Shown here: positions 45,501 through 48,500 of the stretch, in pieces | Layout: every line of letters begins with the position of its first letter | Position numbering within the stretch: the first letter of the stretch is position 1 | Virus record (IMG/VR): IMGVR_UViG_2684622670_000009 | Coordinates: 1-64,000 of that record | DNA length: 64,000 nt | Source: a virus | Taxonomy: Duplodnaviria; Heunggongvirae; Uroviricota; Caudoviricetes | Reading direction: 5' to 3' (one strand) | Position numbers: made by a program

Positions 45501-48500
45501 ACTGACAGGATTGTGCTGGTGAAATCCACCAGCACGGACAGCAAGAGAAAACCAATGGCGATTGCGATACGTGCCTTGCTTGCCATTACAGATAATCTTC
45601 CACACGAAGACCTAAACGACGGCCTACTTCTTCCAGTACTTTGTGTTCTGCTGGCTCGATTTCACCGTCCGCTTCTGCAATCGTCAGCATGTTAACGAAT
45701 ACTTCTTCCGCTTCTTTTGGGTCGTTTTTGATATCTTCAATTTCGCGAAGGATATTCATGCGACCAACACGGAAGCCAGCTTCCAGTTGCTCGGTAAAGC
45801 GGGTAATTGTTGCGGTAATTTCGTTACCAAAATGACTAAGACGCGGATTAGAGCGGATAAGCTGATCAAGTTTCGCTGTTTCTTCTTTTTTGATTTCACC
45901 ATCAGCGGCAGACACCAACAAACAGCCACCGATAATGGCCTCCATCAGATCGCGATTCTCAACTTTTTTCAGCTCTACTTTTGCAGAAGCGACTTTCTTG
46001 CCGAACAATTTACCGAACATTGGTTATCCCTCAATAAAAGTGACATATTTATTAGATTGCGGTGCCGGGTGCCTCCCGGTGACGTTAACCAGTTAACAAT
46101 TAACGCCGGAATGTTTAATCATCAAGGAGGATTGTTTTAACTGTTCCGCGTGCGCTTAGCCGAATTCACCGCAATGGTAAGAGCACTTGGCTGGCTGGGC
46201 GGCGATGACGCCTGTACGCATTTGGTGATCCGGTTCTGCTTCCGGCATTCGCTTAATTAGCCAAATACTCTTAACGTTGCGCTGGTGGAGAGTAATGGAA
46301 TCGAACCATCATCGCTTGCGCAATGGGACGGTTTTCAAGACCGCTTGAGCGCCATACTCCCTACTCTCCAATGATTGTGGTGGTCGGTGCTGATCTCCGA
46401 CTGCGCCTCTTTTTTTCATAGCCCATAAGGCCGGTCAGTGCGCTTGATGACTGAGGCATCGATATTTACTACGCCGCCTCGTTGCCATAGGGCGGACTTG
46501 CGCGCCAGCAACGCGCATTCACCACAACGGAAAGAGCATTCACGTCTCGCATCGCGGGAAAAAGCCCACGGTAGAGAGTCGAACTCTACAAATGCTCTTA
46601 CCTGTTGTGTTGTGATGACCGGTGCTGATCTCCGGCTTGCGGTTATTTCAGACTCTCACGGGCGTTTAATTGCCCCGCCGGACAGCTCTTTTCCGCAATA
46701 GCTGCAATGTCTTTCGCGCATCAGCCTGCGCATTCATCACAACGGTAAGGGTACTTCGGAGGGATTCGAACCCTCTGCCAAGCTCGGCGATCTCCGACGT
46801 CGCAAAATACCCTTACCTGTTGTGCTGGTGCCGGTTAACGGATTCGAACCGCTGACCTCTGGCCTAACATCGAATCGTTGTCATTTGACCAGCAAGGCTG
46901 TCTACCGAAGTAGAAACGATGCTTTGGCTCTCGTGCTCTCCCACTGAGCTAAACCGGCATTGGCGATGGTGGGTGGATTCGAACCACCGACCAGTTAGTT
47001 AACAGCCAACTGCTCTAACCGCTGAGCTACACCATCACTTGCCGGGTACGTCTCCGGCGAGGGCTTCCACCTCCGTATGCTTTTCGGCGCACCGCGCCCT
47101 GGCTGCAATTCGGTAACAGGGGATGCATAACCCTGGCTTCCAGCGTGATTAGCGCTTTCAGCATGACGGGATATACCCGTAAATTCGTGGAACTGTACCC
47201 AAAGTGCTGTTAAGCACCGCTGTTACGCTGAAAAGAAGACGCAACAGGAAAGGACGCTGACCAACAGATGGCCCCTTCTCGTTCATCTGGTTAATCACAC
47301 CAGCGCCCTTACCTGTTGTGCCTCCCCGTTCCCTAATACACAGACGGGGACACTCTGCGGTCGATTTTTTGACGGGGGACGACTCATACCCCGTGGCGTC
47401 TGGCTTCTTAGGCCGCAGCCATCATCAGATCATCGTTTGCATTTACTTTAATGGTCAGTTTCTAAACCGCCGCAAAGTCGCTAACCATGACGAAAACCCT
47501 GAAAAAACGCCCACCCGAAGATGGGCAAACAGGATGTAAGCTCGTTACGCATTTCGGTATTGCCACTTAGGCGTATGGTCAACCTGGCAACTCGGCGTCA
47601 TGAGGGGGAAGGAGTCACTACCCCGCCATACTTGCCGCCGCGCCTGTCGCGGCTAACAGCTAAATCGCTCTATAAATCACGATTCATTGAAACCATATTA
47701 CACTAATAAATTTATTAGAGCAATATAGCAATAACGTCATGAGCTACACCACGAGTGTTCCCCTTACAAGACACAGAACGTCTGGCAAAAAGAGGTTCCA
47801 CTCTGAAGCCACTGTCTTGGTAAAGCTCCCTGATGTTTGGCGCACCACTATTAGTAATGAGGATCTTTGCACCTCGGCGATGAGCATCCATTAGCAGAGA
47901 TACCAGGCGTTTTTGCTCTTCAAACTTAAAGTCATGACCGGAATAGTTTGTGAACCCCTCTGTATTGGGGAGCGGTTCATACGGAGGATCGCAAAAGATG
48001 ACATCTCCTTCTCCGGCAGCTTCAATCACCGCTGAAAAATCACCACATACAAACTCAGAACGCCCTTCAGCACCGAGGAAGGCTTCCATCTCCTGTAATG
48101 GGAAATACGGAGTTTTATACTTCCCATAACCAACATTAAACTCACCGGCCTGGTTGTAACGCGTCAATCCGTTAAAACAATGTCGGTTCAGGAACAAAAA
48201 CGCTGCTGCACGATGTAAATCATCATAGGCTTGTTTGTTAAACGCATTCCGTACTGCCAGGTATCCTTCCTGTGTGTTGTAGTCCTGGAAAAACCGATGC
48301 GCCAGAGTGATAAGTGAATGTCCCTCACGTTGCAGAGTCCTGTAAAAGTTAATCAGGTCAGCATTCACATCATTTAGCAGATTTTCTTGATATCCGGCAT
48401 TTATGAAGACAGCTCCGCCACCAACGAAAGGCTCGATCAGGCGCTTTCCGTCAGGTAAATGCCTAAAGATTTGTTCAAGAACACCAAATTTTCCGCCGAC

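Follow-up and report, generated by a model that had tools for sequence, protein, structure and literature searches.

In Escherichia coli, the tRNA-Ser(UGA) encoded by serT is a canonical class II tRNA, with 7 base pairs (bp) in the acceptor stem and 5 in the T stem (7/5), U8 and G73. Another structural type, the "(8/4) tRNA-Ser" class, has been found in bacteriophages as false positives of the model for selenocysteine tRNA (tRNA-Sec) (Mukai et al., Nucleic Acids Research, online 2016, PMC5389517), and related 8/4 and 9/3 allo-tRNAs are processed, charged, delivered by EF-Tu and used in E. coli (PMC5389517). In phage records, that of D6 annotates a tRNA-Ser with the remark that it has an apparent UGA serine anticodon and that the amino acid was not called by tRNAscan-SE, and that of rV5 annotates trnS as 'discovered using ARAGON', i.e. 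missed by tRNAscan-SE. Here, we analyzed a stretch of 64,000 nucleotides (nt), hereafter the window, which is positions 1 to 64,000 of the IMG/VR virus record IMGVR_UViG_2684622670_000009 (Caudoviricetes), a phage-plasmid of the P1/P7/D6 type, and focused on a tRNA-Ser(UGA) gene in its ban operon. We observed that this gene encodes an 8/4 tRNA-Ser and that, its rare A73 aside, it is an ordinary, already annotated component of P7/D6-type phage-plasmids.

ARAGORN called three tRNA genes in the 64-kb window, all on the minus strand: a tRNA(CAU), a tRNA-Ser(UGA) and a tRNA-Asn(GUU). The tRNA-Ser, with anticodon tga, covers 87 nt at 46283-46369. Direct reading of the sequence places G1 at 46369 and pairs positions 1-8 of the acceptor stem with 76-83, so that A8 (46362) faces U76 (46294). 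The anticodon UGA (46337-46335) sits inside the loop CUUGAAA on a 5-bp stem, and the variable arm AUUGC-GCAA-GCGAU (46324-46311) has 5 bp capped by a GNRA tetraloop (GCAA). A 4-bp T stem with the loop UUCGAUU, the discriminator A (46286) and an encoded CCA (46285-46283) complete the gene. ARAGORN and the sequence reading thereby return the 87-nt tRNA-Ser(UGA) with a GNRA-capped variable arm at the same coordinates as the original prediction, which had been made from the sequence alone. Two of its adjectives need to be narrowed: "type II" is right for the serine anticodon and the long variable arm but not for the stems, which are 8/4 and not canonical 7/5, and "well-formed" is true only for this non-canonical fold.

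At its gathering threshold (29 bits), the Rfam tRNA model RF00005 did not list the tRNA-Ser locus; the same scan gave 71.7 bits to the tRNA-Asn and 61.7 bits to the tRNA(CAU). In a permissive E-value scan, the best Rfam family at the locus was tRNA-Sec, with 37.7 bits for a cut-off of 47, and the match to the ordinary tRNA model, a member of the same clan, scored lower. Minimum-free-energy folding of the single sequence gave no cloverleaf, folding being uninformative for tRNAs. An independent family model was built from 44 homologues, the window and its close relatives being excluded. On the 64-kb window, this model gave one significant match, the tRNA-Ser locus over its full length (87.8 bits, E 1.4e-21), with no non-standard pair, and it scored the P7, D6, rV5 and SSU5-like copies at 85-92 bits. 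At the two P1 loci searched with it, the best match was a canonical tRNA at 24 bits. The covariance-model check is divided between a general model that stays below threshold and a family model that accepts the whole gene.

Homologues were gathered from IMG/VR by a pattern of the anticodon arm only, which left the acceptor and T arms unconstrained, and annotated phage copies were added, for a total of 58 distinct sequences. In their alignment, 96% of the cells were standard pairs and 23 of the 26 pairs showed a compensatory (two-sided) change, a pairing level approached by none of 500 shuffles nor by any slid control. The variable helix was 92% paired, with all five pairs covarying. Position 8 was A, G, C or U in the family, was always paired and changed whenever its partner changed: with the base 3' of the T stem, we counted AU 48, GC 8, CG 1 and UG 1, none unpaired and 10 double changes. 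The rival 7/5 pairing, in which the 3' base meets an invariant G, gave GU 48, GC 8, two unpaired and no double change. Since position 8 changes with its partner, the acceptor stem has 8 bp and the T stem 4 bp, which together make a 12-bp acceptor branch of the "(8/4) tRNA-Ser" class. The pair counts rule out a 7/5 fold with a G-U closing pair, and the description of a canonical class II tRNA-Ser (7/5, unpaired U8) does not apply to a family in which position 8 always pairs. A chance match of ARAGORN is ruled out by the independent family model and the covariation. A tRNA-Sec identity (RF01852) is likewise ruled out, the anticodon being UGA and not UCA, the branch 12 and not 13 bp, and the score short of the cut-off. 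All the anticodons found in the family were serine anticodons, and its acceptor pairs were G1-C72 in 53/58, G2-C71 in 57/58 and A3-U70 in 56/58 sequences.

The gene had been proposed as an addition of this element to the P1 repertoire. Reference P1 has only Asn, Thr and Ile2 tRNAs here, plp and upl occupying the position of the serine cassette, and on this point the supposition that P1 lacks the gene was correct. It is no novelty of the element, as P7 carries it unannotated with 96.6% identity, D6 carries it annotated, and many E. coli plasmids carry it too. The claim of an extra tRNA beyond the three of P1 stands only in part: P1 is without the tRNA-Ser, but the window has Asn, Ser and Ile2 only, its Thr slot being filled by a 133-nt RNA described below. 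In a published D6-like Salmonella plasmid, the tRNAs are those for Asn, Thr, Ser and Met (PMC6799933). Of 5,426 complete E. coli genomes, 333 gave a match, nearly all of them on plasmids, which means that about 6% of these genomes carry an 8/4 tRNA on a plasmid. In PLSDB, 555 plasmids gave a match. Among the genome matches listed, nearly all copies were labelled tRNA-Ser by the Prokaryotic Genome Annotation Pipeline (PGAP). The family also occurs in rV5-like, T5-like, Klebsiella, Acinetobacter, Pseudomonas and Streptomyces phages. Membership of the 8/4 class explains why standard tRNA models miss the tRNA-Ser of P7, D6 and rV5 or assign no amino acid to it.

The locus probably holds the gene of a genuine elongator tRNA-Ser(UGA), a phage-borne member of the 8/4 family whose benefit would most likely be extra decoding of codons ending in A or U. 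As the ban operon of such a P1/P7/D6-type phage-plasmid is repressed by C1, lifting of the repressor would lead to transcription of the tRNA-Ser together with tRNA-Asn, tciABC, tRNA-Ile2 and ban; we infer this co-transcription because of the operator and the gene order. Host tRNA-processing enzymes would excise the tRNA, with its CCA already encoded, and the host seryl-tRNA synthetase would charge it via the long variable arm and the pairs G1-C72, G2-C71 and A3-U70. The charged tRNA is expected to read UCA and, by wobble, other UCN codons, and would thereby add capacity for UCA and UCU, which the element appears to use more than its host. The Thr(UGU) and Ile2 tRNAs of P1 would fit the same A/U-ending pattern, and the tRNA-Ser seems to travel as one cassette of a variable tRNA array that is exchanged between phage-plasmids, P1-like or SSU5-like, and lytic phages of the rV5 type. 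Codon use was counted in 54 long open reading frames (ORFs) of the window, which contained, per 1000 codons, 11.2 UCA, 12.1 UCU, 14.1 ACA, 10.6 AUA and 6.2 AGA; the general values for E. coli K-12, which served as the host reference, are 7.1, 8.5, 7.0, 4.3 and 2.1, respectively. The array tRNAs across relatives (Ser-UGA, Thr-UGU, Ile2 and Arg-UCU) read exactly the enriched codons, and this match gives modest support to codon supplementation. The codon-usage adaptation suggested in the original prediction is thus backed to a modest degree by these ORFs, with the reservation that the enrichment is modest and the host values are general ones for E. coli K-12.

Several observations weigh against this decoding role. 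The enrichment of UCA and UCU is modest, about 1.4-1.6 times the E. coli K-12 values, and reference P1 does well without the tRNA-Ser. The remaining ones concern the discriminator, which was G in 41, U in 16 and A in a single one, that of the window, of the 58 distinct homologues. Exact-pattern scans of IMG/VR returned 71 G73 loci for two A73 loci, only one of which is a true A73 tRNA-Ser. In E. coli tRNA-Ser, G73 is a serine determinant in vivo and an antideterminant against the leucyl- and tyrosyl-tRNA synthetases (LeuRS and TyrRS); in tRNA-Sec, no other element favours serylation as strongly as G73 (PMC9976931). Serine insertion by one allo-tRNA was also attributed to its G73, the G73 variant being the only one to insert serine in the allo-tRNA assays (Mukai et al., PMC5389517). 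The other A73 pattern match in IMG/VR is a tRNA-Tyr of a T4-like phage and was set aside. We observed A73 in three backgrounds: the window together with the Escherichia albertii plasmid pEA16-1_1 (99-100% identical in the region), an E. coli O22:H8 plasmid with a P7-type D arm, and an IMG/VR contig in which the anticodon stem has one more change, from G-U to A-U. These three backgrounds indicate that A73 is a real, persisting minor allele and not a sequencing error. The substitution probably lowers serylation in a gene that looks otherwise undamaged, and the window copy may serve as a natural test case for the weight of G73 in the serylation of an 8/4 tRNA.

If G73A removed a serine determinant, the window would carry a weakened or decaying allele, poorly charged and contributing little. 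The rarity of A73, with one of 58 distinct homologues and one true copy for 71 G73 loci in IMG/VR, and the literature on serylation (PMC9976931, PMC5389517) speak for such a decay. We nevertheless hold it improbable, as all the helices of the window copy are intact, A73 recurs in at least three sequence backgrounds, and G73 does not act as a determinant when unmodified transcripts of E. coli tRNA-Ser are charged in vitro (PMC9976931). Loss of the G73 antideterminant (PMC9976931) could also have changed the identity of the tRNA, so that LeuRS or TyrRS would charge it and UCN codons would be partly misread; the T4-like phage tRNA-Tyr mentioned above has the same 25-nt T-arm and acceptor end, A73 included. 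Mischarging by other synthetases is unlikely because the other leucine and tyrosine determinants are absent: by established identity rules, LeuRS requires a specific D loop and tertiary core and TyrRS a GUA anticodon, neither of which is present here. Mistranslating tRNAs are moreover toxic, which makes their persistence on three plasmids unlikely, and a changed identity is to our mind very improbable.

Besides codon usage, the original prediction raised a tRNA-depletion countermeasure, for which the support is indirect, with none that is direct for serine. The likeliest rival of extra decoding is a role of this kind, in which the 8/4 tRNA-Ser would replace a host tRNA-Ser cut or modified by a tRNA-targeting defence or a competitor toxin, to which it would be resistant through its unusual fold or anticodon arm. 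A parallel exists in T5, whose tRNA-Lys, tRNA-Thr and tRNA-Asn neutralise the PARIS defence (PMC11464382, PMC12409363); altered versions of T5 tRNAs rescue infection, and the PARIS nuclease AriB cuts its targets at U36AAUC|A41 (PMC12409363). Asn(GUU) and Thr(UGU), the two isoacceptors next to it in the P1-type cluster, are precisely the secondary targets of AriB (PMC12409363), and the window tRNA-Asn differs from those of P1 and P7 at 39/40, beside the AriB cut site, by changes that are compensated. In addition, the Thr slot is filled by an anticodon-less tRNA mimic, the same array in the E. coli plasmid pEC361_3 includes tRNAs for Arg(UCU) and Tyr and adjoins an anti-Thoeris gene, Tad2, and the 8/4 fold has been retained across very different lytic phages. 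Nothing in the window, however, ties the tRNA-Ser to a particular nuclease, and it is without the UAAU motif recognised by AriB. The papers on tRNases that were consulted, PMC12409363 among them, name no tRNA-Ser target, although no search was aimed at serine-specific tRNases. We consider this replacement role rather unlikely. Extending it to the whole cluster, as a counter-defence cassette against tRNA-targeting nucleases instead of a codon supplement, appears less likely still, even if it could accommodate all three of an 8/4 tRNA-Ser unfamiliar to nucleases, a tRNA-Asn with a variant anticodon stem and a 133-nt mimic that has no anticodon. Were it true, the A73 allele could be an uncharged decoy or a tRNA of altered identity. 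Extra decoding of A/U-ending codons remains the explanation that we favour.

The placement of the tRNA-Ser within the tRNA cluster of the ban operon was confirmed by an unchanged operator, by the gene order, by Pfam matches and by synteny with P1, P7 and D6. The bivalent C1 operator Op(ban) (47697-47724) matches exactly both half-sites annotated in P7 and overlaps the ban-operon promoter that would drive the minus-strand tRNA cluster. On this strand, the order is dmt, the operator, tRNA-Asn, the 133-nt RNA, two structured spacers, tRNA-Ser and a third spacer, which runs into a match to the STnc100 RNA family; tciA, two short ORFs, the tRNA(CAU) and ban follow. The first gene of the cluster is tRNA-Asn(GUU) (46961-47036, minus strand), called by ARAGORN and, as given above, by the Rfam tRNA model. 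Relative to P1, P7 and D6, this tRNA-Asn has G-C in place of A-U at 31/39 and G-U in place of G-C at 30/40, and it reads UAACUA in place of UAAUCA after the anticodon, which is the position of the AriB cut site. The tRNA with a CAU anticodon (45236-45311, minus strand; ARAGORN) has a P1 homologue annotated as tRNA-Ile2. The minus-strand gene tciA (45586-46020) encodes a TerB-family protein of 144 amino acids (Pfam TerB, E 8e-15), and ban (43590-44954, minus strand) a DnaB-type replicative helicase of 454 amino acids (Pfam DnaB_C, E 6e-108). The STnc100 match lies just upstream of tciA (46058-46173, minus strand) and reached 50.3 bits (gathering score, 47) over only part of the model, positions 31-147; STnc100 is a prophage small RNA family related to PasD (bioRxiv 10.64898/2026.05.13.724894). 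An Rfam YrlA match (E 0.2) straddles two adjacent elements, from the T arm of tRNA-Asn to the D arm of the one that follows, and was treated as an adjacency artefact.

Between the tRNA genes, the minus strand has three structured spacer modules that are related to one another, at 46735-46822, 46530-46612 and 46170-46282 (fold z-scores -5.3, -2.8 and -4.1). They have in common a long closing stem, GGUAAGRGYAU...RURCYCUUACC, and the repeat GUUGUGRUGAAUGCGC comes after each of them; a hairpin resembling a T arm is present in the first two. The third lies directly 3' of the tRNA-Ser and forms a long hairpin, GUUAAGAGUAUUUGG...CCAAGUGCUCUUACC; in BLAST comparisons, the tRNA-Ser and this 90-nt downstream hairpin are common to rV5-like phages with about 82% identity. 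Compared with P1, P7, D6 and a second P1 isolate, the window differs block-wise, and the block edges are short common repeats, for example CTTACCGTTGTGRTGAATGCGC and GGAGATCAGCACCG. The edges of these blocks, as seen among P1, P7, D6 and the window, coincide with the spacer modules and a second repeat, GGAGAUCAGCACCG. Other phage-plasmids have, in the same place, Asn-Thr-Ser or Asn-Tyr-'tRNA-OTHER'-Ser. The P1-like plasmid pEC361_3 has, at locus 540-2571, tRNA-Arg(UCU), Tyr, Thr, an 8/4 Ser (labelled tRNA-OTHER) and Ile2, and then a gene of the Thoeris anti-defence Tad2 family. The 851-nt cluster had no full match in PLSDB, where high identity extended over 88% of its length at most in any plasmid. 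The varied tRNA combinations and the cassette common to rV5-like phages argue that the tRNA array is a mosaic of exchangeable cassettes. Between trnS and trnT at the rV5 locus (790-888), ARAGORN also predicts a tRNA-like sequence of 99 nt that the record does not annotate and whose 'anticodon' has 4 bases; it starts GCUAGGUAAG, which is reminiscent of the spacer modules of the window.

The 133-nt tRNA-shaped RNA (46826-46958, minus strand), which has an encoded CCA, was recognised from alignment to P1, P7 and D6, from a homologue that PGAP labels 'tRNA-OTHER' and from pair counts in 13 homologues. It fills the slot held by tRNA-Thr(UGU) in these three phages and retains the acceptor, D and T arms of that tRNA, a structured domain of about 74 nt replacing the anticodon stem-loop. 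This domain consists of a covarying helix around three small invariant hairpins, one of which has a UUCG loop. The sources of the 13 distinct homologues were plasmids of the P1-like and SSU5-like types, phage Jgk1, and contigs, either viral or from metagenomes, that range from 2 to 866 kb; a metagenome match without a tRNA frame (L186) was excluded as a chance match. Among them, the acceptor covaries in 6/7 pairs and the T stem in 3/5, and one inner helix pair was CG in seven, GC in five and UA in one. The core of about 50 nt that contains these three hairpins keeps the same sequence throughout, including in homologues whose tRNA frame has diverged completely. A permissive scan found no Rfam family match for the 133-nt RNA, and a scan of genome contigs gave no match to its core. 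An intron-containing tRNA was considered and rejected: ARAGORN with introns allowed gives none, and no removable contiguous segment leaves a 7-nt anticodon loop with U33. Because there is no anticodon loop, the predicted structure is one that cannot decode, and the 133-nt RNA may be a stable non-coding RNA or a tRNA mimic. Its nearest known precedent is a pair of stable RNAs in the T4 tRNA cluster. It is probably more interesting than the tRNA-Ser itself.

Two further features of the window were recorded. The ORF of the DNA methyltransferase dmt (47715-50930, minus strand) has 1071 amino acids, compared with about 754 for the P1 dmt feature of 2265 bases, and its N-terminal third matches Pfam Hint_2 and LAGLIDADG_3, which suggests an intein with a homing endonuclease. 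At 19968-20178 on the minus strand, Rfam gave 76.7 bits for C4 antisense RNA and 62.4 bits for isrK, which we take to be the expected immunity-region RNA pair of P1/P7-type phages.

Compared with known systems, the window tRNA-Ser shares with the E. coli serT product the loop CUUGAAA, the pairs G1-C72, G2-C71 and A3-U70 and a long variable arm; it differs from this product by a paired A8, by A73 and by two unpaired A's ahead of the anticodon stem. Like the T5 tRNAs active against PARIS, it is phage-encoded in an accessory cluster, and its neighbours Asn and Thr coincide with AriB targets, but PARIS involves no serine tRNA. With the "(8/4) tRNA-Ser" class (PMC5389517), it has in common the 8-bp acceptor stem, the 4-bp T stem, the long variable arm and a serine anticodon, and it behaves in the same way as a false positive of the tRNA-Sec model. 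That class was described with G73 or U73, whereas the window copy has A73, and the allo-tRNAs are drawn with a long D stem and a tetraloop, whereas the D arm of the window copy has 4 bp and a loop of 5-6 nt. The trnS of rV5 and other Vequintavirinae is 87% identical to the window gene, the 90-nt downstream hairpin being common to both; the rV5 gene differs in having G73 and a variable arm longer by 4 nt, and it lies in the array of a lytic myovirus (Arg, Tyr, Ser, Thr, Met, Pro). The closest counterparts are those of P7, D6 and D6-like plasmids, which are like the window in locus (between tRNA-Thr or tRNA-Asn and tciA in the ban operon), in fold and in anticodon. They are 95-97% identical to the window gene over 87 nt. 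In comparison with the P7 and D6 copies, which have G73, the window has A73, a D-stem change, C14U, that results in a U-G wobble, and a D-loop change, U19C, and P7 and D6 keep next to their tRNA-Ser the intact tRNA-Thr that the window does not have.

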